Part shown: positions 2,848 through 41,586 of the stretch, in pieces
How positions within the stretch are numbered: position 1 is the stretch's first letter
How the letters are laid out: each line of letters starts with the position of its first letter
Source: an uncultured Fimbriimonadaceae bacterium
GTDB lineage: Bacteria; Armatimonadota; UBA10988
Assembly (NCBI GenBank): GCA_964405335.1
Contig: CAYONP010000017.1
Span: 8,570 to 72,569, forward strand
DNA length: 64,000 nucleotides
Direction of reading: 5' to 3'
Position numbers and translations under genes: made by a program
Notes under the pieces: generated by a model
What the model was told of the DNA's origin: nothing
The model's input: the letters and a program-made list of their open reading frames with translations, nothing else
Database searches by the model: none

Positions 2848-4152
2848 GTGCAGCGTCCGTCGGTCAGGGTCAACGTCACCGTCAAGCCCGAGCTGACGGT
2901 GCGTCGTCCACCGCGGGCGTTGATCGAGCTGCTCGACCAGCCCGAGGATGAGTTCCGCGAGTATGTCGCCGCGGTCGAGCACAGCCGCGAGTTCCAGGAC
3001 CTGATCGACGCCGGAGCGGTGCGTCGCGTGCGGGCCCGCGGGCGGCTGCCGCGCGAAAAGTACGAAGAGTACATGGACGTGCAGTTGATGCAGTTCCTGC
3101 GTCAACACCAGATCACCCGCCACAGCGACTGGGAGCGCGTCTTCGCCGACCCCGCCTCGCTCGAGAAGTTGCCCGTCCTGGCCGCCAGGTTCGACGTCGA
3201 CGCCGAGCAGCTCGGCAAGATGATCGGCTATTACCAGCAGGTGACCTTCGAGGAGGAGGCCGCCGCGCGCTACGGTCACGCCGACCTCGACGCGCCCGAG
3301 CCTGATTACGTCGAGCTGATCCCGTCGCGCGCCGACCTCGACCTGACCGACCAGATCGTGCTCATGCGCGACTTTGTCGAGGTCTATGGGATCGACCAGG
3401 AGGAGTTCAGCCGCGAGTTCATGAGCGGCGACCGATCGGCCGAGGCACTGGCCGCCGCCTACAGCGCGCCGATCGATGAGGTGCGCGAGATCCTCGACGC
3501 GCTGGGCCGGGTGCAGATTGCCGAGACGTTTGTCGCCGGCGCCGAGCGGCGCGACCGGCCGGCGCGCGCGGCTGGCCAGCCGGTCGAGCACATCGAGCCG
3601 GTGGCGCGCGTGCTGCTGACGGACCAGGCGCGGGCGGTCTCGATTCAGTTCACCGATGACGGCATGTATGCGCAGCGGTACCGGACCAGCCCGGCGGCGC
3701 TGCAGAAGATCGAGACGCTGCGCGGCGACCAGGGCCACCTCGAGCGGCTGCTGCTCGAGCTGCAGTGGATCAACCAGCGGAAGAACCTGCTCTGCCGCCT
3801 GGTGCTGGCCGCCTGCAACCACCAGTACCCCTACTTCTTGACCGGCGATGTGCACGCGCTGAAGCCGCTGTCGCAGGCCGAGATTGCCCGGCAGCTCGGC
3901 GAGGACGAGGCGACCATCTGCCGGCTGTTGCGCGACAAGTACCTCGACACGCCGACCGGGCCGATGGAGCTGAAATACCTGTTCCAGAAAAAGACCGACG
4001 TGGTGCGGCGGATTGTCGAGCGTCACCCGGAGTTGACCGACAACGAGATCCGCGAGATCCTCGAACGCGACTTCGAGACCAACATCTCGCGCCGCACGGT
4101 CGCCTATCACCGGCTCAAAGCCCAACGCGCGCAGAATGCCAAGCCGCACTGA
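2848..4152 (+). CDS. divergent sigma-54 (RpoN)-like protein
   Basis: The C-terminus LKPLSQAEIARQLGEDEATICRLLRDKYLDTPTGPMELKYLF ... LTDNEIREILERDFETNISRRTVAYHRLK parallels the HTH and RpoN box of sigma-54. It aligns by eye with the canonical RpoN at 14639-16015 (LRPLTRLQIARQLGIHESTVGRAVAGKFVQLP ... ARRTVAKYRQML). The N-terminal and core-binding regions are far more diverged. A GTG start is assumed. Confidence 0.65.
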   Translation: MQRPSVRVNVTVKPELTVRRPPRALIELLDQPEDEFREYVAAVEHSREFQDLIDAGAVRRVRARGRLPREKYEEYMDVQLMQFLRQHQITRHSDWERVFADPASLEKLPVLAARFDVDAEQLGKMIGYYQQVTFEEEAAARYGHADLDAPEPDYVELIPSRADLDLTDQIVLMRDFVEVYGIDQEEFSREFMSGDRSAEALAAAYSAPIDEVREILDALGRVQIAETFVAGAERRDRPARAAGQPVEHIEPVARVLLTDQARAVSIQFTDDGMYAQRYRTSPAALQKIETLRGDQGHLERLLLELQWINQRKNLLCRLVLAACNHQYPYFLTGDVHALKPLSQAEIARQLGEDEATICRLLRDKYLDTPTGPMELKYLFQKKTDVVRRIVERHPELTDNEIREILERDFETNISRRTVAYHRLKAQRAQNAKPH

Positions 4153-13911: not shown

Positions 13912-14709
13912 ATGGCCGACACCCTTCTGGCCATGCTGGCCAAGCCGCCGGTGCCGGGCCGGGTCAAGACCCGCTTGACCCGCGATGGTGCCTACAGCGC
14001 CGACGAGGCGGCGCGGCTCTATGCCGCCTGCCTGCGCGACGCGACGGCGCGGCTGGCCTGCCCGGAGCGGTGGAGGCTGGTCGTGGTGCATCCGCCCGGC
14101 GAGCCGGGCGACGCCCTGCGCGAGCTGGTCGACCAGCGGGCCGAGGTGCGCTCCGAGCCGGTCATCACGACCGAGTCTCGTGACCTCGGCGCGGTGATTG
14201 CCGACCTGGTCGCCGCCGGCCTCGAGGCTGGGGCCGGCAAGGTCGCCGTGATTGGCAGCGACGCGCCGCATCTGCCGCGCGAGCGGATCGATGAGGCGTT
14301 GGCGCGGCTCGACCACGATGACCTGGTGCTTGGGCCCGACGAGGGGGGTGGCTGTTATCTGATCGGCGGCCGCGTGCCGCTCGATTGGCTGACCGCCACC
14401 GCCGCCGAGGGACCGGTCGCCTGGAGCCGGGGCACCGACCACGACGAGTTACGGCGCCGCGCGGCGCGGCGAGGCCTGCGGTGCGGGCGGCTGCCCGCCT
14501 GCTTCGACCTCGACGAGCCAAGCGACGTGGACCGCCTGCGGGCCGAGCTGGCCGCGGGGACGATCGACGGCAGCGACCTGCCGCACGTCCGCGCGGTGCT
14601 CGCCGCCCTCGGTCCCCGCCGGCCGCAGGTGAGTCACGATGCGTCTGGACTACATGCAGGAAGCGCGGCAGGAGCAGACGCTCAGCCCGCGGATGATCCA
14701 GTTCTATGA
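13912..14709 (+). CDS. DUF2064-type (TIGR04282-like) nucleotidyl/glycosyl-transferase-like protein
   Basis: ATG 13912 with GGAGA upstream. The pattern LAKPPVPGRVKTRL ... VIGSDAPHLP ... LGPDEGGGCYLIGG is typical of DUF2064. The 3' tail overlaps rpoN by 71 nt. Confidence 0.7.
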   Translation: MADTLLAMLAKPPVPGRVKTRLTRDGAYSADEAARLYAACLRDATARLACPERWRLVVVHPPGEPGDALRELVDQRAEVRSEPVITTESRDLGAVIADLVAAGLEAGAGKVAVIGSDAPHLPRERIDEALARLDHDDLVLGPDEGGGCYLIGGRVPLDWLTATAAEGPVAWSRGTDHDELRRRAARRGLRCGRLPACFDLDEPSDVDRLRAELAAGTIDGSDLPHVRAVLAALGPRRPQVSHDASGLHAGSAAGADAQPADDPVL

Positions 14710-16015
14710 GATGCTCCAGTGCCCGCTGCAGGAGCTGGACACCATCATCTCGCGGGAGCTGAGCGAGAACCCGGCGCTCGAGGTCGTCGACCGAGCACCC
14801 GAGCCCGACGAGGAGCGTCCCGACGCGCGGCTGGCCAACGGCCCCGGCGCGCGGACCTGGACCGCCGACGGCGCGGCCGAGAGCGAGGGCGGCGCCGATG
14901 ACCCCATCGCCGCGTTGCCCTGCCCGGTGACGCTGCAGCAGCACCTCGGGTGGAGCTTCCGCGCCCTCGCCCAGACCCACGAAGAAGAGCGCATCGGGCT
15001 GCGGATCATCGACGACATCAACGATGACGGCTACTTCGAGTCGGGCATCGGCGAGATCGCCATGCACCTCGGTGCCGACATCATCGAGGTCGAGCGTGTG
15101 CTCGGCCTGGTGCACCAGCTCGAGCCGAACGGCGTCGGCGCGCGCGACCTGCGCGAGTGTCTGCAGATCCAGCTCCACGCCCTGCGCGAGGCAGGCCGCG
15201 ACCATGTCGTCGCGGTGCGCCTGGTCGACGAGTGCTGGGACCCCTTCTGCCGGCGGCAATACACCAACTGCGCGCGGCGGCTGCGCTGCAGTGAGCAGGC
15301 GGTGGTCGACGCGGCCGAGTTCATCCGCAAGCAGACACATCCCTACCCGGGCCGGCAGTACCGCGTGCCGTGGAACCTCAGCCCGGCGGCACCGCAGGCC
15401 CGGCCCGAGGTGCGGATCGATGCCAACCCGCACGACGCGCCGCCGCCCTATGTCGCCGACGTGGTCGAGTCGCGGCGGATGACGCTGCGCATCGATCGCA
15501 TCTACCGCCGGCTGTTCGACGAGATCCAGAACGGCGCCGCCGCCTCGCCCGACGATGCCGAGCATGTCATGACCTGCGTGCGCCGCGCGCGGCAGTTCAT
15601 CCGCAGCATCAACCAGCGGCGTGAGACGGTCCGCCGCATCGCCCAGAAGGTGGCCAACGAGCAGGTGCCATTCCTGCGTTACGGGCGCACGCAACTGCGG
15701 CCGCTGACCCGCCTGCAGATCGCGCGCCAGCTCGGTATCCACGAGAGCACCGTCGGCCGCGCGGTGGCGGGCAAGTTTGTCCAACTGCCGAGCGAAGAGG
15801 TGGTGCAGTTCGAGCTTTTCTTCGACTCGTCGCAGCCGGTGCGCCTGGCGCTGCAGGAGCTGATCGACTCCGAAGACAAGCGGCACCCGAAGAGCGACCA
15901 GGAGCTGGCCGACGCGTTGTTCGAGCAGGGCCACGAGGTGGCGCGGCGAACCGTCGCCAAGTACCGCCAGATGCTGCGCATCCTGCCCGCGCACCAGAGG
16001 AAGCAGACCACGTGA
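14639..16015 (+). CDS. rpoN: RNA polymerase sigma-54 factor
   Basis: Region I is MRLDYMQEARQEQTLSPRMIQFYEMLQCPLQELDTIISRELSENPALE, followed by an acidic region II. The core-binding domain contains IIDDINDDGYF ... LEPNGVGARDLRECLQIQL. The HTH and RpoN box ARRTVAKYRQML are present. Confidence 0.92.
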   Translation: MRLDYMQEARQEQTLSPRMIQFYEMLQCPLQELDTIISRELSENPALEVVDRAPEPDEERPDARLANGPGARTWTADGAAESEGGADDPIAALPCPVTLQQHLGWSFRALAQTHEEERIGLRIIDDINDDGYFESGIGEIAMHLGADIIEVERVLGLVHQLEPNGVGARDLRECLQIQLHALREAGRDHVVAVRLVDECWDPFCRRQYTNCARRLRCSEQAVVDAAEFIRKQTHPYPGRQYRVPWNLSPAAPQARPEVRIDANPHDAPPPYVADVVESRRMTLRIDRIYRRLFDEIQNGAAASPDDAEHVMTCVRRARQFIRSINQRRETVRRIAQKVANEQVPFLRYGRTQLRPLTRLQIARQLGIHESTVGRAVAGKFVQLPSEEVVQFELFFDSSQPVRLALQELIDSEDKRHPKSDQELADALFEQGHEVARRTVAKYRQMLRILPAHQRKQTT

Positions 16016-26256: not shown

Positions 26257-27678
26257 TTACTCGATCTGCGTGCCGACCGCCTCGGGCGCCGGGTCGAGAA
26301 TCACCTCGATCGGCCGTGCCGGGCGCTCGTCGCGGACCAGCAGGCGCACCGTCTCGCCGGCGCGCTTGGCGCGGACCAGCTCGCGCAGCGCCGTTGCCGT
26401 GGCAGTGCGCTCGCCGTCGCAACTGAGCACCACCATGCCGGGCACCAGGCGGCTCTCCGCCGGCGAGGCCGGCACCACGCCGACCACCAGCGCCCCCGAC
26501 TCGTACAACCGCAGCCACGGCCAGGCCCGCCGATCGGCCTCGGTCGCCAGGGCCACGTCTCTCAGCTCGGCGCCCAGGAAGCCCGGGCCCAGCGGGCGGT
26601 TGGGCGGCCGTACGGTGCTGATCAGCGGCCGCAGCCGAACCGCCACCGTCACCGTCTCGGTCCGCCGCGCCTCGACCGTCTCGACCGCGGCGAAGTAGCC
26701 GTCGCGTTGCACCACCACCTGCACCAGAGCGGTCGTCTCGTCGCCGAGGTCGACGTCGGCGGAGCAGGGCGTCTGGCCGACGGCGACACCGTCGACGGTC
26801 ACCTCGGCGCCCGAGGGCTCGGAACTGACGGTGACCGTCGCCATCGGCCGCGGTCGGGCCAGGATCAGGTCGGCGCCGCCGGGGTTGTCGTACATCGGGT
26901 GCTGGCGGTAGCCGCGGCCGGCCGACCAGTCGGCGACCTGGCGCTGCACGTAGGCGGCGAGGTAGTCGAGCGCGACCTGGCCGTCGGCATCGGCGGCGCC
27001 GCCGCGCAGGCCGTCGACCAGGAAGCGGGTGAACGCCCCGTGGCCCGCCTCGGGCCAGGCCCAGGCTCGCTCGCCGACCTGGCAGGCGAGCAGCGTGGCC
27101 ACCGCGCGCGGTCCGTGCGCCGTCTGCGTCAGCGCCGGCCGCAGGCCGCGCGCCAGGCCCTCGGTGAGCAGGTTGTCGCCCACCCCGCGGCTGGCATAGG
27201 GGTCGTTGCGGCAGGCGTCGATGAACAGCACCACCGTACCGGCGCGGACCTCGGCCAGCACCCGACCGAGCGAGTCGAGGCCGATGCCGGTCTCCTCGAG
27301 CAGCAGCGGGTCGCTGTCGGCGGTGAGCAGGAACTGGCCCTCGGGCGTCTCGATGCCGTGCCCGGCAAAGAAGACCAGCAGCGCATCGTCGGGCCCGGCG
27401 AGCAGTCCGAGCCGCTTGACCGCCAGCAGCAGATTGGCCCGCGTCGGCGGGCGCTCGGCCGCGGCCTCCGACTCGGCGAGGTATAGCTCGACCTGCGACT
27501 CGGGCAGGCCGGCAACGGCCGGGTTGGTCAGCGTCTCGGCCACCGCGCGCGCATCCGCGGCGGCAAAGGGCACCGCGCTGAGTTCGGGGTGGGAGTAGGC
27601 TTCAATCCCCGCGACCACCGCGAACGTGTCGGCCCTGGCCAATCCGACGAGCAGCAGCACCACCGCGCCCACCCGCAT
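26257..27678 (-). CDS. secreted caspase-family (peptidase C14) protein with PEGA and PDZ domains
   Basis: Signal peptide MRVGAVVLLLVGLARA. The His/Cys dyad lies in FFAGHGIE and LFIDACRNDP. A PEGA-like segment is VTVSSEPSGAEVTVDGVAVGQTPC. The PDZ-like C-terminus is GALVVGVVPASPAESRLVPGMVVLSCDGE. Confidence 0.8.
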   Translation of the reverse strand: MRVGAVVLLLVGLARADTFAVVAGIEAYSHPELSAVPFAAADARAVAETLTNPAVAGLPESQVELYLAESEAAAERPPTRANLLLAVKRLGLLAGPDDALLVFFAGHGIETPEGQFLLTADSDPLLLEETGIGLDSLGRVLAEVRAGTVVLFIDACRNDPYASRGVGDNLLTEGLARGLRPALTQTAHGPRAVATLLACQVGERAWAWPEAGHGAFTRFLVDGLRGGAADADGQVALDYLAAYVQRQVADWSAGRGYRQHPMYDNPGGADLILARPRPMATVTVSSEPSGAEVTVDGVAVGQTPCSADVDLGDETTALVQVVVQRDGYFAAVETVEARRTETVTVAVRLRPLISTVRPPNRPLGPGFLGAELRDVALATEADRRAWPWLRLYESGALVVGVVPASPAESRLVPGMVVLSCDGERTATATALRELVRAKRAGETVRLLVRDERPARPIEVILDPAPEAVGTQIE

Positions 27679-31585: not shown

Positions 31586-31704
31586 GGTCTCCTCCTTGTC
31601 TGCTCTCACCTGCGGTCAAGCCGCCGGCGGGCTATCCATGGTGCTGCCAGTTTCATGCATTGCCGCGGCACTGTCCATCCGGCGGCCCAAAAAGTCGTGC
31701 GGCC

Positions 31705-31742
31705 GGGGGGGGGGCGGGGGGGCGGCGCCCGGCGGGGGGGGG
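31705..31742 (+). repeat. clustered homopolymeric G tracts (G10, G7, G9)
   Basis: G10 at 31705-31714, G7 at 31716-31722 and G9 at 31734-31742. They lie in the 465-nt divergent intergenic region between the pilin-like gene (31585, minus) and the hemerythrin gene (32051, plus). Confidence 0.9.
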
Positions 31743-32050
31743 CCGGTCGCGGCTGGCGAACCGCCCGTTGGCGTCGGGCGGTGGGCCATCGCCAGCCGCG
31801 TGGTCAACCGCGTCGAGGCCCAGGCAGCTTCGCGCACGCCTGGCTCCGCTCCGGAAGGCGGCACGGTCGGGCGCTCCTCCTCCCCGGTGTCTCCTCCTCA
31901 GCGGCCACTCGACGCGATCCAACATCGGATTCGCCCCGCTCCGATGCCCTCCTTCAGATCGCGCTTACTTTTTCGTCAGGAATCCGAAACATGACGCCGA
32001 CGGCGCGGCGCGCGAGGTGGTGTGCGGGTACAATGGCCGGGGAGGCAGCC

Positions 32051-32527
32051 ATGCGTCGCCATCCGGTGCTGCAGAAGCTGAGTGGCGATCATCACGGTGG
32101 TCTGGTGCAGGCGCGGCACTTGCGTGAGGCGACGCCGGCGACGGTCGAATCGCGAGCGCGGCAGTTTCTATCGCGTTGGCGGCTCGAGCTGCAGCCGCAC
32201 TTCCGCGAGGAGGAGCTGGCGCTGCTGCCGGCGGTCTGCCCGCCGCTCGAGCCACGGCATCCGGCGGTGGCCGAGATGCTGGCCCAGCACATCGAGCTGC
32301 GTGCCGAGGCCGAGCGATTGCGCGCCGCCCTGGCCGACGGCGACCGCGAGCGCCTGCTGGGCATCACCGCGGCGCTGGCCGAGCGGCTGGCCGCGCATAT
32401 CGAGCACGAGGAGCAGCAGCTGTTCGAGGCGATCCAGGCGGCGCTGAGCGACGAGGAGCTGGCCGCGCTCGGCCGCCGACTGGCTGCCTGGGAGGCCGCC
32501 GCGGCCGACGCGGGGCCGGGCTACTAG
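32051..32527 (+). CDS. hemerythrin (HHE cation-binding) domain protein
   Basis: Last 158 codons of track ORF 30995..32527, with ATG 32051 after GGGGAGG. His/Glu pattern: LSGDHHGGL, LQPHFREEELALLP, AQHIELR, LAAHIEHEEQQLF. Confidence 0.75.
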   Translation: MRRHPVLQKLSGDHHGGLVQARHLREATPATVESRARQFLSRWRLELQPHFREEELALLPAVCPPLEPRHPAVAEMLAQHIELRAEAERLRAALADGDRERLLGITAALAERLAAHIEHEEQQLFEAIQAALSDEELAALGRRLAAWEAAAADAGPGY

Positions 32528-36071: not shown

Positions 36072-36152
36072 GCGATTGAATTCGTTGCCCGCGTGGGAAC
36101 CTCCGGCCGACCGGCGTCTCATTGCGGACAACTCTCCCCGGAGGTATGAACG

Positions 36153-36512
36153 ATGAAGCGAACGCTGGTGTTGCTGTCCCTGTTTGCGGTACCGCTGGCG
36201 GCCGACGCCGCGACGGTCATGCTCCCGGCGCTGCCCGGCTACCACGAGGCCGGCGCCTGGAACAAGCGCCCGCCGCGGACGTTTCCCAAGGCGGCCGTGA
36301 CGCTGACCATGACCCAGGCCGAGGCCCCGATTGAGGCCGGCGCCTGGAACAAGCGCCCGCCGCGGCGGCCGTTCGACGGCGCCGCCGGCGCCGTCGGGCT
36401 GTCGTTGGCCGCCGGTCTGGTCGAGGCCGGCGCCTGGAACAAGCGCCCGCCGCGCAACTTCTGCGACTGCACCGGCTGCGAACACTGCCGGCCGGGCTGC
36501 CGTTGCCAATAG
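36153..36512 (+). CDS. small secreted protein with three EAGAWNKRPPR repeats and a 6-Cys C-terminal tail
   Basis: GGAGG lies 7 nt upstream of ATG 36153. The Sec signal is MKRTLVLLSLFAVPLAADA. Three in-frame repeats sit 29 and 30 codons apart. The C-terminus is NFCDCTGCEHCRPGCRCQ. Confidence 0.7.
   Translation: MKRTLVLLSLFAVPLAADAATVMLPALPGYHEAGAWNKRPPRTFPKAAVTLTMTQAEAPIEAGAWNKRPPRRPFDGAAGAVGLSLAAGLVEAGAWNKRPPRNFCDCTGCEHCRPGCRCQ
36246..36455 (+). repeat. three 33-nt direct repeats inside the small ORF
   Basis: GAGGCCGGCGCCTGGAACAAGCGCCCGCCGCG(G/C) occurs at 36246-36278, 36333-36365 and 36423-36455. 32 of 33 nt are identical in all three copies. The 54- and 57-nt intervening sequences are unrelated. 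Confidence 0.95.
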
Positions 36513-36526
36513 CCCCGTCCCCCACC

Positions 36527-36561
36527 GACACCGCCCGGCGCCTCCCCCGCCGGGCGGTGTC
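36527..36561. terminator. bidirectional hairpin between convergent small ORF and serpin operon
   Basis: GACACCGCCCGGCG-CCTCCCC-CGCCGGGCGGTGTC, a 14-bp perfect stem. It lies between the stops at 36512 (+) and 36576 (-). No U-run on either side. Confidence 0.55.
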
Positions 36562-36575
36562 ACGTCTGCCCGCCG

Positions 36576-37802
36576 CTACGGCGCGGTGACCCGCCCGCAG
36601 AACAGGATCAGCCCACTCGCGCGCTCGCGGATGAGGTAGAGGAACGGGCGATTGAGCGTCACCTCAACCAGGCCGGGCGTCGGGAGCGAGAGGGAATCCG
36701 TGGCGGACATCGTCGCCGCGGCCGCCTCGGTGCCCTGCTCATTGACGGCGATCCAGGTCTGCTGGTAGATTCGGTCAGCAACCATGCCGGCGCGCTCGGC
36801 GATGCCGCTGTAGTCCGCGCCGTCGCCCAGCGGCAGACCCATGCCTTCGACGAGGTTGTGCACCGAGGTGCGCGTTTCCCACTTCGGCATAGCCAGCCGC
36901 GCTGGCATCGTCTCGAGCGAGCCGATGAGCTGGTCGAGCCTCGCCAGGTCGAGCCCCTCCTCCCACTGCGCGAACTTGCCCGGGCCGGGCGCGACGATGG
37001 TCATCGCCAGCTTGCCGCCCAGATACGGGAGCTCCAGCACCTCGGTGTCGACCGCGCGCGCGTACGCCAGGCTGCCTTCGTGGTGCATCATCGGCACCTG
37101 CCGGACGACGCCCGCGAGGGTGGTGAACGGCCCGGACTGGGTCATCTCCACCGCGAACTCGTCCTGCCACGGCGCCAGCAGGCAGGCGGCGTTGGCCAGC
37201 ACAACCCACGGGATGCCATCACCAAAGCCCTCGGCCAGGTCGGTAATCCGACCATCGGTCGCCTCGCTGGCCCAGTCGTTGATCGCCGTGGTGAGAGCGT
37301 CGAGGTCGCTCATCTCGACGCGGTACAAGGGTGAGCCGAAGTGCGTGGCAATCAGACGCTCGAACTCCGGTTTGACCGGCACCCGCCGGTCGATCCAGCC
37401 GGCGCAGACCAAGCGCAGATCGAGGTCGGCAGCGGCGCGCTTGATGGTCTGGCTCAGCCCCGACACCGCCGCCGGCAGCGCCTCGGGCGCCTGCATGAGG
37501 TGCATGGCCTGTGCGAGCTGCGCGGCCGTCTCGCCGCGCGCGCCGGTGTAGATCATCGCCAGCGTCATCCACAAGCTGATCGGTGAGATGACGCAGTTGT
37601 CCTGACCCTCGTCCAGGCGCCGATAGGCGTCGAGCGCGAAGCGGTTGGCCGAGGTGACCAGCAGTTCGGGCTCGACGACTGCCGCGGCAGGCGGCGGTGG
37701 CGGCGGGCTCGGCGCAATAGCCGGCGGCGGCTCGGGCCGGTGCCCACAGGCCGACAGGGCCAGGCAGAGCAGAGCGCTGGTGGAGCGGATCAACATGCTC
37801 AT
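36576..37802 (-). CDS. serpin family lipoprotein (S1; canonical inhibitory hinge)
   Basis: Lipobox LALSAC and a Pro-rich linker. Serpin body: NCVISPISLWMTLAMIYTGARGETAAQL. The hinge plus RCL is EQGTEAAAATMSATDSLSLPTPG, followed by NRPFLYLIRERASGLILFCGRV. The start may instead be the ATG at 37796. Confidence 0.9.
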   Translation of the reverse strand: MSMLIRSTSALLCLALSACGHRPEPPPAIAPSPPPPPPAAAVVEPELLVTSANRFALDAYRRLDEGQDNCVISPISLWMTLAMIYTGARGETAAQLAQAMHLMQAPEALPAAVSGLSQTIKRAAADLDLRLVCAGWIDRRVPVKPEFERLIATHFGSPLYRVEMSDLDALTTAINDWASEATDGRITDLAEGFGDGIPWVVLANAACLLAPWQDEFAVEMTQSGPFTTLAGVVRQVPMMHHEGSLAYARAVDTEVLELPYLGGKLAMTIVAPGPGKFAQWEEGLDLARLDQLIGSLETMPARLAMPKWETRTSVHNLVEGMGLPLGDGADYSGIAERAGMVADRIYQQTWIAVNEQGTEAAAATMSATDSLSLPTPGLVEVTLNRPFLYLIRERASGLILFCGRVTAP

Positions 37803-39010
37803 CTCCCGAGGTCCGACGTGTCGGTCGGGCGAGTGACCCGCCCGCAGAACAGGATCAGCCCACTCGCGCGCTCGCGGATGAAGTAGAGGAATGGGCGATT
37901 GAGGGTGACGGTCACCTCGTTGGCGTTCATCTCCGCCTTCCTCGCCGCGAAAAGCGAGAACGACAAGGCCTTCGTGCCCTGCTCATCGACCTGGATCCAG
38001 GACTGCTGGTAGAGCAATGGCGGGGCCAGAGCCTGGTCGGTGATGCCGGTCAAGTCGTACCGATCGCGCAGGGGCAGCTTGAGCTCGCCGATCAGGTCTT
38101 GCCGCGTGGTCCGCGTCTCCCACCTCGGCATGGCCAGCCGCACATGCACCGACTCAAGTTTGCCGATGAGCCGGGTGAGCGTCGCTTCATCCAGCTTCTT
38201 TTCCCACGCGGCGAACTTGCCCTTGTCGGGCGCGACGATGGTCATCGCCAGTTTGCCGCCGCGATAGGGCAGCTCCACCACATCCGCGTCAACCGCCCGC
38301 ACATAGGCCAGGTCGCCCGCCTGGTGCATCATCGGCACCTGTTCGACCGGCCCGGCGAGAGTGTAGAACGGCTCCTCGCGCGTCTGCTTCGCGTCGAAGT
38401 CGTCGGCCCACTTGGCAACCAGATAGGCGGCGTTGGCGAGGACAACAGTAGTCGCCCGATCCGGGCGGACGTCTGCTGCCACGTGGGTGATCCGGCCCTT
38501 GGTGGCGCGGCGCGCCCAGCGGTCGATCGAGGGGCTGAGCGCGGCCAGGTCTCCGCCCCGGTAGCGCTGCACGCGCGCGCCGAAGTGGGCGCGAATCTGC
38601 CGCTCGTAGTCGGGCTTGACCGGCAGCCCGCGCTCGAACCACACCGCGCAGGCGAGCCGCAGATCGACCTTGGTGGCCGCCTCGCGGAGCAGCGGGTCGA
38701 GCCCCGCCACCGCCGCCGGCAGCTCGTCGGGCGCCTGCGTGAGGTGCATGGCCTTTGCGAGCTGAGCGGCCGTCTCGCCCCGCGCACCGGTGTAGACCAT
38801 CGCCAGCGTCATCCACAAGCTGATCGGTGAGATGACGCAGTTGTCCTGACCCTTCTCCAGGCGCCGATAGGCGTCGAGCGCGAACCGGTTGGCCGAGGTG
38901 ACCAGCGGCTCGGGCTCCGCCGGCAGCGGAACGACCACCGGCGGTGGCTCGGGCTTGCCGCAGGCAACCAGCGCAAGGCAGAGCAGACCACATGCAGTGC
39001 GGGTTACCAT
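37799..39010 (-). CDS. serpin family lipoprotein (S2)
   Basis: Lipobox LALVAC. The body is nearly identical to S1 in places (VTSANRFALDAYRRLEKGQDNCVISPISLWMTLAMVYTGARGETAAQL). The RCL is EQGTKALSFSLFAARKAEMNANE, followed by NRPFLYFIRERASGLILFCGRV. ATGA overlap with the S1 start. Confidence 0.85.
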   Translation of the reverse strand: MVTRTACGLLCLALVACGKPEPPPVVVPLPAEPEPLVTSANRFALDAYRRLEKGQDNCVISPISLWMTLAMVYTGARGETAAQLAKAMHLTQAPDELPAAVAGLDPLLREAATKVDLRLACAVWFERGLPVKPDYERQIRAHFGARVQRYRGGDLAALSPSIDRWARRATKGRITHVAADVRPDRATTVVLANAAYLVAKWADDFDAKQTREEPFYTLAGPVEQVPMMHQAGDLAYVRAVDADVVELPYRGGKLAMTIVAPDKGKFAAWEKKLDEATLTRLIGKLESVHVRLAMPRWETRTTRQDLIGELKLPLRDRYDLTGITDQALAPPLLYQQSWIQVDEQGTKALSFSLFAARKAEMNANEVTVTLNRPFLYFIRERASGLILFCGRVTRPTDTSDLGR

Positions 39011-40257
39011 GCTCGTCTCGGTAGTTCCTTCGGATCGATCGGGCGTGTGACCTGGCCGCAGAACAGCACGGCGCCGGTCGTGCGGTCACGGATGAGGAAC
39101 AAAAACGGCCGGTCGATATGGACCTGGACGGGCATCGCCTGAGTCAGGCCCATGGTGAGCAGTGCCGCCGCGGCGACGGCGACGGTGGTGCGCTGTTCAT
39201 CGACGCTGATCACCGCTATGCTCAGCACGTCGGCAACCCAATCACCCCGGCTGCCGCGGATGCCCGAAAAGTCGGCCGGCGCGAAGATCGGGCCGAGGCC
39301 GAGCGCGGTCAGTGGCTCCTTCAGCGCCGACTCGCTCGCGAAGCTGAACCGGGGCAGCTTGAGCTCGACCTTGACCTCCTCGAGCAGGCCCATCCACTCC
39401 GCCACTTCGTCCGGCGCCAGCCGCTCGCGGACCGCGACGAAGCAGCCCGGGTCGGGCACGATCAGCAGCATCGCCACCTCGCCGCCCACGTAGGGCAGCT
39501 CGACCAGATGCGCCTCGCGGACGCGGAGGTAGGCGCAGTCGATCGCTTCGCTCATCATCGGCACGTTGTAGTCCGCGCCGCTGAGCGGGTGAAACGGCTC
39601 GTCGTAGGTATTGCCGTGGAACGGGTGCTCCCACGGCGCGTCGAGGTAGGCCGCTTGGAGCAGGACAAGAAAGGTATCGTCATCCAGCGCCCCGCGCGGG
39701 ACCAGGTCGCGGACCAGGCCCTCGGTCCGCGCCTCGGCCCAGGCGTTCATCGCCCGGCGGCCCGATTCGCGGCTGAGGTCGGCGGCATACCAGCCCGCGC
39801 CGTAGTGCCGCTTGAGCAGGTCGAGGAACCCCGGCAGGAACGGCTGGTCGTCGCGCGCCCAGCCCGAACAGGCCAGCCGGAGCACGAGGCTGCCGCGGCC
39901 GCGCTCGGCCAACGCCGCGTCGAGCGCCCCGCAGGCAGCGTGGTGGCGGTCGTCGGGCAGTGCAATGCCCAGCGCGGAGCGCATCACCTCGGCGGTCTCG
40001 CCCCGCGCGCCGGCGTAGACCATCGACAGCACCTGCGCCGTGCTGTAGGGCGAGAGCAGCAGGTTGTCGTCGTCCGCGGCCGCCTGGAGCAGCTTTAGCC
40101 CGAAGGCATTGTGGCTCTGCGCGACCGATTCGACGTCGGCCGCCGGCGCTGTGCGCCGGGTTCGCACGGGCGAGGTGACCGGCTGCGGTCCGGTGCGCTC
40201 GCCCGGCCGACCGCAGGCAACCAGCATCAGGCAGCACAGCAACCCCACTGAGCGCAT
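39004..40257 (-). CDS. serpin family lipoprotein (S3)
   Basis: Lipobox LMLVAC. Serpin body: LLLSPYSTAQVLSMVYAGARGETAEVM. The RCL is EQRTTVAVAAAALLTMGLTQAMP, followed by DRPFLFLIRDRTTGAVLFCGQV. 7-nt overlap with the S2 start; GGGAGG RBS. Confidence 0.85.
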   Translation of the reverse strand: MRSVGLLCCLMLVACGRPGERTGPQPVTSPVRTRRTAPAADVESVAQSHNAFGLKLLQAAADDDNLLLSPYSTAQVLSMVYAGARGETAEVMRSALGIALPDDRHHAACGALDAALAERGRGSLVLRLACSGWARDDQPFLPGFLDLLKRHYGAGWYAADLSRESGRRAMNAWAEARTEGLVRDLVPRGALDDDTFLVLLQAAYLDAPWEHPFHGNTYDEPFHPLSGADYNVPMMSEAIDCAYLRVREAHLVELPYVGGEVAMLLIVPDPGCFVAVRERLAPDEVAEWMGLLEEVKVELKLPRFSFASESALKEPLTALGLGPIFAPADFSGIRGSRGDWVADVLSIAVISVDEQRTTVAVAAAALLTMGLTQAMPVQVHIDRPFLFLIRDRTTGAVLFCGQVTRPIDPKELPRRAW

Positions 40258-40269
40258 GGCGCACCTCCC

Positions 40270-41586
40270 TCAGCCGCTCGGGTCGACCACTCGGCCGAGC
40301 AGCAGCACCGCGCCCGTCGGCCGGTGCCAGACGACATAGACGAACGGCCGGTCGACGACCAGGTCGAAGGGCTCGCCGGGATCCGATACACCGCACTCGG
40401 CCGCCACCCCATAGCCGGCGGTGACCACCCGCGCCACGGTGCCGTGCTCGTCGACCTTCAGCCGCCCGCGCTGCAGCACGCTCTGGAGCCAGACCTGCGT
40501 CGGCTCGTCGGGATCGTGGCGCCGGCGGAGAATATTCGGCAGAGCTGCCTGCCGCCAGAGGAAGAGCGTGTGCAGGCCGGCCGCCTCCAGTGGCTCATCC
40601 AGCCGCAGGTCGAGCTGCTGCTCCCAGCGCGGCATGGTCAGGTTGCCGTGGCGCGGCTGCAGGTTGGTCAGCACCGTCCGCAGGCCGCCGCCGGCGAGCG
40701 CCTCCTCGGCGGCGGGCAGGCCGCCGGCGTCGGGCACAATCAACACCATGGCCAGCTCGCCGTCGCGATAGGGCAGCTCGACCACGTGCGACGCGAAGGC
40801 CCGCAGGTAACGGAACGACCGCCCACCGCCCGACAGGTCGGTGGCGCGCATCATCGGTACCGTGACCGGCCGACCGGCGAGGCGGTGGAAGGCCCGCAAG
40901 TCATCCTTCTCGCCGAACTGGTTCGACCAGCGCGCCGTCAGGTCGAGCAGGCTGACGATGACGAAGCCGACGTCGTGCTGGGGCAGCGTCGGTTGTTCGA
41001 TCACCGGCAGCAGCTTCTGCTCGCTCGCGAAGTCGGTGATTTCGCCGCCGGTCAGCTCGGCCACGTGCTGGCTCAGCTCGACCGCCAGACCGGCCTCGCC
41101 GGTCGACTGCAGCGGCACGAACCGGTCGCCGAAGGCACGCTTGAACGCCCGCGCGTACGACGGCGCGACCTCGACATAAGGGCCGATGCAGAACTCGCTC
41201 GACCAGGAGAGCCTGGTCGCCAGCTCGTCGTCGCGACTCTTGTCGATCCCGCCCAGCGCACGCTCGATGTCGCCGACGGCGTGGTACCAGTCGGCCGGCT
41301 CCAGCGTGCGGCCGAGCACGCGGTCGAGCTCGGCGGCGGTCTCGCCGACCGCGCCGAGGCGCACCCGGGCCAGCGCGGTGGCCACGCTGAACGGCGCGAC
41401 GAGCGCGTTGCCGTCGCACGCGGGAAAGGTCTGCCGAAACAGCGCCGCGGAGAAGTCGCACAGCCCGGCGCCGACGGCGGGCATGGCGGTCAGCGGCGGA
41501 GCCGGCTCGGCACGCCGCCGCAGCGCAGCCGGCCGGCCGCACCCGCAGACCAGGCAAACCAGCACGCTCGCGAGACATCGTCGCAT
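40270..41586 (-). CDS. serpin family lipoprotein (S4, most divergent)
   Basis: Lipobox LVCGC. Serpin body: ALVAPFSVATALARVRLGAVGETAAEL. The RCL is EHGTVARVVTAGYGVAAECGVSDPGEP, followed by DRPFVYVVWHRPTGAVLLLGRV. GGGAG RBS. Confidence 0.8.
   Translation of the reverse strand: MRRCLASVLVCLVCGCGRPAALRRRAEPAPPLTAMPAVGAGLCDFSAALFRQTFPACDGNALVAPFSVATALARVRLGAVGETAAELDRVLGRTLEPADWYHAVGDIERALGGIDKSRDDELATRLSWSSEFCIGPYVEVAPSYARAFKRAFGDRFVPLQSTGEAGLAVELSQHVAELTGGEITDFASEQKLLPVIEQPTLPQHDVGFVIVSLLDLTARWSNQFGEKDDLRAFHRLAGRPVTVPMMRATDLSGGGRSFRYLRAFASHVVELPYRDGELAMVLIVPDAGGLPAAEEALAGGGLRTVLTNLQPRHGNLTMPRWEQQLDLRLDEPLEAAGLHTLFLWRQAALPNILRRRHDPDEPTQVWLQSVLQRGRLKVDEHGTVARVVTAGYGVAAECGVSDPGEPFDLVVDRPFVYVVWHRPTGAVLLLGRVVDPSG

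Follow-up and report, generated by a model that had tools for sequence, protein, structure and literature searches.

The small open reading frame (ORF) at 36153..36512 (+) in the 64-kb window analysed here (64,000 nt; all coordinates are window positions), which belongs to an uncultured Fimbriimonadaceae-related Armatimonadota bacterium of sludge and bioreactors, is a genuine gene that is separately and very strongly transcribed. It codes for 119 amino acids plus a stop codon, and its sequence agrees with that quoted in an earlier note on this DNA. The product begins with a Sec-type signal peptide, contains three copies of an eleven-residue cassette, EAGAWNKRPPR, separated by unlike segments (named S0, S1 and S2 in Table 1), and ends in a tail with six cysteines. 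As judged from substitutions between two lineages, the protein sequence of the cassettes and of the C-terminal 18 residues is strongly constrained, and S2 and the end of S1 drift. From these features we infer the kind of the gene, either a secreted pre-pro-peptide or a repeat-containing small Cys-rich protein, and likewise its function.

Structure of the small gene

The repeat is formed by a 32-nt unit, GAGGCCGGCGCCTGGAACAAGCGCCCGCCGCG, which occurs three times with no mismatch, starting at 36246, 36333 and 36423; no further copy is found in the window when up to three mismatches are allowed, and 0 of 100 dinucleotide-preserving shuffles yielded a 32-nt repeat match. With starts 87 and 90 nt apart the copies stand in frame, and each of them is read as EAGAWNKRPPR. 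The 33rd base of the unit is G, G and C in turn and gives an Arg codon in all three cases, in line with the description in the earlier note of a three-fold in-frame unit of 33 nt with 32 of 33 nt identical. The same note held the segments between the repeats to be dissimilar, which is confirmed: they have no similarity to one another, and the layout of constant cassettes is kept in the divergent lineage treated below. Its third structural claim, an exported protein with a Sec signal and six terminal cysteines, can also be read directly. The 19-residue signal peptide has an n-region with KR (MKR), a 14-residue hydrophobic core and an A-D-A cleavage motif (A-x-A) as c-region, and the tail comprises 18 residues with six cysteines.

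Codon usage is that of a coding region throughout. The GC content by codon position is 0.675/0.60/0.925 in the small ORF and 0.76/0.55/0.93 in the 1148-aa gene upstream, with the serpin genes on the other side alike, and the third-position value (GC3) is 0.89-0.95 within the spacers, so that the coding pattern holds in each of them.

Transcription of the locus

In metatranscriptome contigs from several independent studies, the RNA depth of the small gene is 20-100x that of the flanking genes. Contig depth over 36138-36504 reaches 259 (X11), 103 (X28), 11 (X26) and 12 (X25); in the same assemblies the preceding bin is at 0-3 and the following bins are at 0-27. Contigs of the DNA runs X1 and X2 are even on both flanks, at ~16-20x. 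One RNA contig of 377 nt (X26) spans 36146-36522, exactly the small ORF. The 5' ends of the RNA contigs fall at 36138-36148 in five runs from four studies (X25, X26, X11, X27 and X36) and the 3' ends mostly at 36520-36525, the foot of a hairpin. Contig ends and depth therefore indicate a separate promoter for the small gene, located in the 81-nt gap between it and the gene upstream. In several metatranscriptomes from wastewater and bioreactors its RNA ranks among the organism's most abundant transcripts, and DNA of the locus occurs in sludge, bioreactor, biofilm and aquatic metagenomes.

Upstream of the RNA 5' ends, two blocks conserved among the window, the divergent contig L082 and a further contig, L083, namely 36094-36105 (TGGGAACCTCCG) and 36114-36152, border a variable spacer. 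Within 36094-36123, TGGGAACC and CGTCTCATT are conserved in the three lineages and the 12-14 nt between them vary; these blocks resemble a promoter of extracytoplasmic function (ECF) sigma factors with -35 GGAAC and -10 CGTC, at a short spacer of 14 nt. A sigma-54 promoter was also considered and rejected, the TTGC element not being conserved in L082 and L083 and the spacing being off by one. At the other end, the hairpin lacks a T-run and is likely a bidirectional terminator. It separates the stop codon of the small gene from the serpin stop at 36576, and the convergent arrangement with a hairpin between the two units, as described earlier, is thus as stated. The mRNA fold of the locus is ordinary (z = -1.6), and Rfam gives no match to it.

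Evolution of the cassettes and spacers

In a divergent lineage, represented by L082, the upstream gene is 86.8% identical in nucleotides and 87% identical in protein. The ortholog of the small gene in this lineage, a composite of the overlapping RNA contigs X33, X34 and X35, reads MKRTLVLLSLFAIPLAADAATVMLPVLPGYH-EAGAWNKRPPR-TFPKAAVTLTMTQADAAAT-EAGAWNKRPPR-RWPIDRAAAVAGLPLTAGLI-EAGAWNKRPPR-NFCDCTGCEHCRPGCRCQ. As the three-cassette layout occurs in both lineages, the triplication predates their split. The suggestion of a very recent duplication, drawn previously from the identity of the repeats at synonymous sites, does not survive a layout common to lineages whose neighbouring genes differ with a proportion of synonymous changes (pS) of 0.27 and 0.33.

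Nei-Gojobori counts of pS and of the non-synonymous proportion (pN) between the window and the divergent lineage separate the parts of the gene. The cassettes, 33 codons in all, have 1 synonymous change (pS 0.04) and 0 non-synonymous ones, and the tail has 2 (pS 0.19) and 0, with all six cysteines invariant. The signal peptide together with S0 has pS 0.15 and pN 0.03, S1 has 0.41 and 0.08, and S2 has 0.27 and 0.21. All non-synonymous changes of S1 lie within its last four residues, where EAPI becomes DAAAT with a net gain of 3 nt; S2 in the divergent lineage has 14 substitutions and a 3-nt insertion, at pN/pS ~0.8. The indels seen are all multiples of three: T plus CC near 36328-36332, GCG after 36361 and a minor CCG after 36422. 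When all strains are taken together, four distinct synonymous changes (36248, 36341, 36362 and 36428) and 0 amino-acid changes fall in the cassettes, a pattern with P ~0.004 under the neutral expectation that ~3/4 of changes are protein-altering. Their synonymous change is below that of the neighbouring genes (binomial P ~0.003), and only marginally below that of the other constrained parts of the small gene (P ~0.08).

From the pattern of substitutions and indels it follows that the frame is translated, that the cassettes and the tail are constrained and that S2 is linker-like; the frame is conserved in relatives and the indels come in threes, contrary to what an untranslated ORF, a possibility that had been raised for this locus, would present. 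Gene conversion accounts for the identity of the cassettes within a genome, not for their identity between lineages. Selection on the nucleotide sequence as such, which had been proposed as another cause, does not fit the four synonymous changes among strains in pure form, though synonymous change is unusually low; the low cassette pS may be explained sufficiently by selection at the codon level, the gene being very highly expressed. As regards the variation of S2 among strains, the Ser84 of the window (TCG, 36402) is a minority state, and nearly all other strains and the divergent lineage have Pro (CCG).

Forms with fewer cassettes exist among the Logan contigs, a two-cassette form without S2 (P0002/L001, of which L001 has 1054 nt) and a one-cassette form without S1 and S2 (P0003/L084, of which L084 has 2316 nt), L001 and L084 coming from two runs of one study. 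They may be collapsed or chimeric assemblies, because the repeat of 32 nt exceeds the assembler word of 31 and the flanks of L084 are unequal in divergence (99.1% vs 94.5%), so that this contig looks chimeric; they may also be real recombinational deletions between cassettes. The contigs in which the identity of the repeats is interrupted by single-nucleotide polymorphisms (X5, 1450 nt; X26, 377 nt; X30, 267 nt; X34, 213 nt) are all of the three-cassette form.

Search for relatives

The small protein is a lineage-restricted orphan. A word-indexed search of 5.8 billion proteins returned itself and near-identical strain forms only, and one match beyond strain variants, P0004, came from a full HMMER scan of 1.84 billion representatives. 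As a distant relative this match was rejected: it is a translated 168-nt tandem DNA repeat on an unrelated 59%-GC contig, a chance similarity inflated by the repeats on both sides. On the unrelated JGI contig L085 (2190-2788), a 168-nt tandem repeat of 3.6 copies has an annotated translation with VEAGCWSKARP four times, the one distant cassette hit, which is taken to be due to chance. GTDB genomes do not contain the exact 32-mer, and no relative occurs in JGI metagenomes; a degenerate AGAWNKRPP pattern hit a single Pseudomonas sequence in both collections, by chance, in a frame with stop codons. No match to the small protein was found in Pfam, NCBIfam or the PDB by sequence search (for Pfam and NCBIfam even at E up to 10), nor with the Enterotoxin_ST, DUF2282 and bufferin precursor models. 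The tail shares the spacing CX2CX2CX3C with 4Fe-4S ferredoxins; the assignment was dropped, E = 8 not being significant. The wider search for the motif and the unit which the earlier note proposed thus recovered strain forms, and no homologue among proteins, GTDB genomes or JGI metagenomes. Nor is the unit a dispersed non-coding repeat, its three in-frame copies being the only ones in the window and none being present in GTDB genomes.

Genomic context

The assignment of the host agrees with RelA/SpoT, which has 59-65% identity to metagenome-assembled genomes of Fimbriimonadaceae/Armatimonadetes and <40% to all else found; genes of DUF1559/prepilin type are present as well. For the membrane protein encoded before the small gene, neither Pfam nor NCBIfam has a match, and its relatives are confined to the species complex. 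Beyond the serpins follow a YceI-like gene, a beta-helix protein and a GH4 alpha-galactosidase. Pfam scans of ~40 window ORFs gave the housekeeping Era, RelA, RpoN, RarA, KdsA and KdsD; no radical-SAM, MNIO/DUF692, DUF2063, YcaO, LanM/LanC, subtilisin (Peptidase_S8), prolyl-oligopeptidase or peptidase-ABC gene is among them, and no cas gene. The absence of a nearby maturase, remarked on before from the letters, accordingly holds for the ~40 ORFs scanned.

A battery of four serpin paralogs is unusual for a bacterium. Their predicted reactive loops all differ, with Leu at P1 in serpin 1, R-K near P1 in serpin 2 and non-basic residues in serpins 3 and 4, and a homology search with serpin 1 found itself and one paralog only.

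Table 1. Features of the small gene and of its neighbourhood
Feature	Position	Strand	Basis or remark
Hemerythrin	32051-32527	+	two genes upstream of the small gene
Orphan polytopic membrane protein, 1148 aa	32625-36071	+	N-terminal CxxC...CxxC zinc ribbon
Promoter-like upstream region	36094..36139	+	alignment of L082, L083 and window, with RNA 5' ends; putative promoter
Ribosome-binding site (RBS) GGAGG	36140..36144	+	8 nt before ATG; invariant in L082 and L083
Coding sequence, 119 aa and stop	36153..36512	+	ORF list, codon-position GC, RNA contig, frame-preserving indels, synonymous excess
Sec-type signal peptide MKRTLVLLSLFAVPLAADA	36153..36209	+	sequence and hydropathy; predicted cleavage site
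Segment S0 ATVMLPALPGYH	36210..36245	+	single conservative A to V change in divergent lineage
Cassette 1 EAGAWNKRPPR	36246..36278	+	exact repeat; nucleotide-identical in L082, L083 and X35
Segment S1 TFPKAAVTLTMTQAEAPI	36279..36332	+	first 14 residues conserved despite synonymous changes
Cassette 2 EAGAWNKRPPR	36333..36365	+	exact repeat; variants synonymous only (36341 C>T, 36362 G>T)
Segment S2 RPFDGAAGAVGLSLAAGLV	36366..36422	+	moderately hydrophobic, fast-evolving (hydropathy and substitutions)
Cassette 3 EAGAWNKRPPR	36423..36455	+	exact repeat; sole variant synonymous (36428 C>T)
Six-Cys C-terminal tail NFCDCTGCEHCRPGCRCQ	36456..36509	+	C-x-C-x2-C-x2-C-x3-C-x-C, read from sequence
Perfect 14-bp GC-rich hairpin	36527-36561	.	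inverted repeat and fold; between both convergent stop codons
Four tandem serpins with lipoprotein signals (L-x-x-C)	36576-41586	-	Pfam; convergent with the small gene

Three further observations concern the wider window. The most abundant RNA of the region is that of 31743-31915 (with a G-run at 31703-31742), at a depth of 1463 (X11), 172 (X26) and 164 (X28). To one side of it lies the long poly-G tract and to the other the start codon of hemerythrin (32051). It is ~95% conserved in L082 vs 87% for the flanks, has a stable fold (-96.7 kcal/mol, z = -2.1), no convincing ORF and no Rfam match, and may be a structured small RNA or 5' leader. At 26257-27678 (-), caspase (Peptidase_C14), PEGA and PDZ domains are combined in one protein. 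Two sigma-54-related genes lie at 2848-4152 (+) and 14639-16015 (+), of which one is a complete RpoN (AID, CBD and DBD) and the other has the DNA-binding domain only.

Interpretation of the small protein

Modelled by AlphaFold2 without an alignment, the protein reaches a mean pLDDT (predicted local distance difference test) of 53.6 with no fold, and its mature part (~100 aa) is accordingly predicted to be disordered. The reading that we place first, as a possibility still short of a probable one, is that of a Sec-exported disordered pre-pro-protein with a reiterated recognition cassette and a six-Cys tail peptide that would bind metal or form disulfides. The protein would be exported by Sec and its signal cut after A-D-A; the tail would close into a compact disulfide knot or, in reduced settings, provide a Cys/His metal site. 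The basic, proline-rich cassette, reiterated along the pro-region, would act as a recognition module, either for processing, in which cleavage after KR or PPR would release the tail and perhaps peptides from S0 and S1, or for docking. This would be the bacterial pre-pro-peptide logic of E. coli STa, with a pro-region built by reiterating one cassette.

Several points weigh against this reading. Cleavage, disulfides and metal binding are all proposed without homology support, and neither Pfam nor NCBIfam, Enterotoxin_ST included, has a family match for the protein. No protease gene is adjacent to the small gene, and eleven invariant residues are more than a simple protease site would be expected to span. 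Conservation extends to S0 and most of S1, so that the tail need not be the sole functional product. The RNA contigs, moreover, are strandless, and their assignment to the + strand comes from the ORF boundaries and a single adapter junction at 36147. In an unlikely variant the product would be a pro-hormone-like Sec-exported polyprotein, in which general envelope proteases would cut the invariant cassette, almost nucleotide-identical within and between lineages, to give several peptides including the six-Cys knot, with no neighbouring maturase.

The alternative to which we give most weight, although we doubt it, dispenses with processing: the protein would stay a disordered periplasmic or surface protein, its basic, Trp/Pro-rich cassettes being multivalent short linear motifs for a partner or an anionic envelope polymer. 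Its Cys/His tail may then be a metal-binding or redox-active end, and the whole an envelope or metal-stress protein under an ECF-like promoter. An 11-residue unit that is invariant as a whole is easier to reconcile with a binding motif than with a cleavage site, and the predicted disorder and the linker-like S2 agree with it. So do the upstream GGAAC ... CGTCT blocks with their likeness to ECF -35/-10 elements, the hemerythrin gene two genes upstream, and the existence of exported Cys-rich copper-binding peptides under ECF control, the bufferins (PMC11626156). Yet the partner would be hypothetical, no family matches, the GGAAC-CGTCT spacing is 14 nt where 16-17 is usual, and exported cysteines are normally oxidised. 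[quoted passage not shown] Constant units between dissimilar segments, a Cys-rich tail and a high transcript level typical of precursor genes speak for it, and Sec signal peptides are known on RiPP precursors (PMC11626156). The 64 kb, however, hold no maturase-class gene among the ORFs scanned, no RiPP precursor model of NCBIfam or Pfam matches, and the segments are not uniformly hypervariable. RiPP precursors nearly always adjoin their enzymes. The cyanobactin-like multi-core layout suggested by the earlier note finds neither protease nor maturase nor transporter in the 64 kb, and only S2 drifts.

That note also linked the basic motifs to the serpins, and the gene might on this ground be a substrate, bait or regulator of the four-serpin operon, its PPR being cut as P2-Pro/P1-Arg by a serpin-controlled trypsin- or thrombin-like protease. 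PPR followed by any residue suits such a preference, the four lipoprotein serpins are adjacent and convergent, and serpin 2 has R-K near the predicted P1-P3. We consider the link very unlikely: the two are separate convergent transcription units with the serpins at an RNA depth 20-100x below that of the small gene, non-basic reactive loops occur in three of the four serpins, no serine protease gene lies in the window, and nothing beyond adjacency, itself checkable in very close relatives only, ties the gene to the serpins. As little credit goes to a polyprotein of tandem signal-peptide-like units (KRPPR as n-region, a hydrophobic segment, A-G-A as c-region), from which signal peptidase I would release WNKRPPR-headed peptides by cutting after every EAGA. 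Here A-G-A before Trp does meet the -3/-1 rule, and S2 is moderately hydrophobic (13-residue Kyte-Doolittle mean 1.7) and still hydrophobic in the divergent lineage; but this core is weaker than that of the true signal (2.55), S1 is not hydrophobic (~0.3), and we know of no bacterial precedent. Hardly credible, finally, is a non-protein element, a CRISPR-like mini-array or a repeat-bearing small RNA that is open in one frame by chance. The identity and sharp borders of the three 32-nt repeats, the unrelated spacers between them and an abundant RNA might suggest one; against it stand spacers of 55 and 58 nt that are in frame with GC3 of 0.89-0.95, the RBS and signal peptide, indels in threes, cassette and tail changes that are synonymous only, an ordinary mRNA fold (z = -1.6), and the lack of cas genes in the window and of an Rfam match.

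Significance

If the cassette is a processing or docking module, the gene would be a bacterial rarity, coding for a multi-segment pro-protein that Sec exports and that is made with no gene cluster dedicated to it; genome mining centred on maturases would overlook such precursors. If the pro-hormone-like reading is true, it would add a new class of bacterial secreted peptide precursor, abundantly expressed in a poorly known phylum; if the product is merely a disordered envelope protein, it would be an ordinary lineage-specific orphan. The high transcript abundance suggests that the small gene probably matters for the ecology of uncultured Armatimonadota. With cassettes near-frozen even at synonymous sites next to a spacer whose drift is nearly neutral, the gene is also a compact natural case in which concerted evolution, or selection at the codon level, could be studied for short repeats within coding sequence.

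Relation to known precursors

Among eukaryotic systems, the yeast alpha-factor and insect apidaecin precursors have a signal peptide and reiterated units, with dibasic KR sites and X-Ala dipeptides (EA, GA) that adjoin the peptide set free. They repeat the product peptide itself and use the Golgi enzymes Kex2 and Ste13, whereas here the constant unit separates unlike segments and the host is bacterial. From CRISPR arrays the locus differs by its spacers of 55 and 58 nt vs the usual ~30-40 nt, which are in frame and have coding GC3.

Cyanobactin precursors of the PatE type are similar in having short constant recognition units with differing segments between them; they have a leader peptide and no Sec signal, and stand beside the PatA/PatG proteases (PMC2854353, PMC4663559). 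These proteases are subtilisin-like, and a heterocyclase gene usually accompanies them. The small protein, in contrast, has a canonical Sec signal, no Peptidase_S8 or YcaO domain occurs in the ~40 ORFs of the 64 kb, and S2 alone is truly variable, S1 (first 14 aa) and the tail being conserved. Bufferins are Sec-exported Cys-containing RiPP metallophores, with six conserved cysteines in BufA2 (PMC11626156). The small protein shares with them its size, the Sec signal with conserved cysteines, a periplasmic destination and possibly ECF-type regulation, but its gene has no adjacent MNIO (DUF692) or DUF2063 in the window and no DUF2282 or NCBIfam match, and bufferins are predicted to fold and have no cassette repeats, unlike a protein predicted to be disordered.

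The closest working analogue is the STa precursor of E. coli, in which a signal of 19 aa and a pro-sequence of 34 aa precede a mature six-Cys peptide of 18-19 aa with three DsbA-made disulfides, and which is exported by Sec and oxidised in the periplasm (PMC6356903). The two have no sequence similarity, and the cysteines are spaced CC-x2-CC-x3-C-x2-C in STa and C-x-C-x2-C-x2-C-x3-C-x-C here; the pro-region here is longer and is made up with the cassette in three identical copies, the host is a member of the Armatimonadota from the environment, toxin activity is not indicated and processing is predicted only. What they have in common is the overall plan, a 19-residue Sec signal, a pro-region and a C-terminal six-Cys segment of 18-19 residues.

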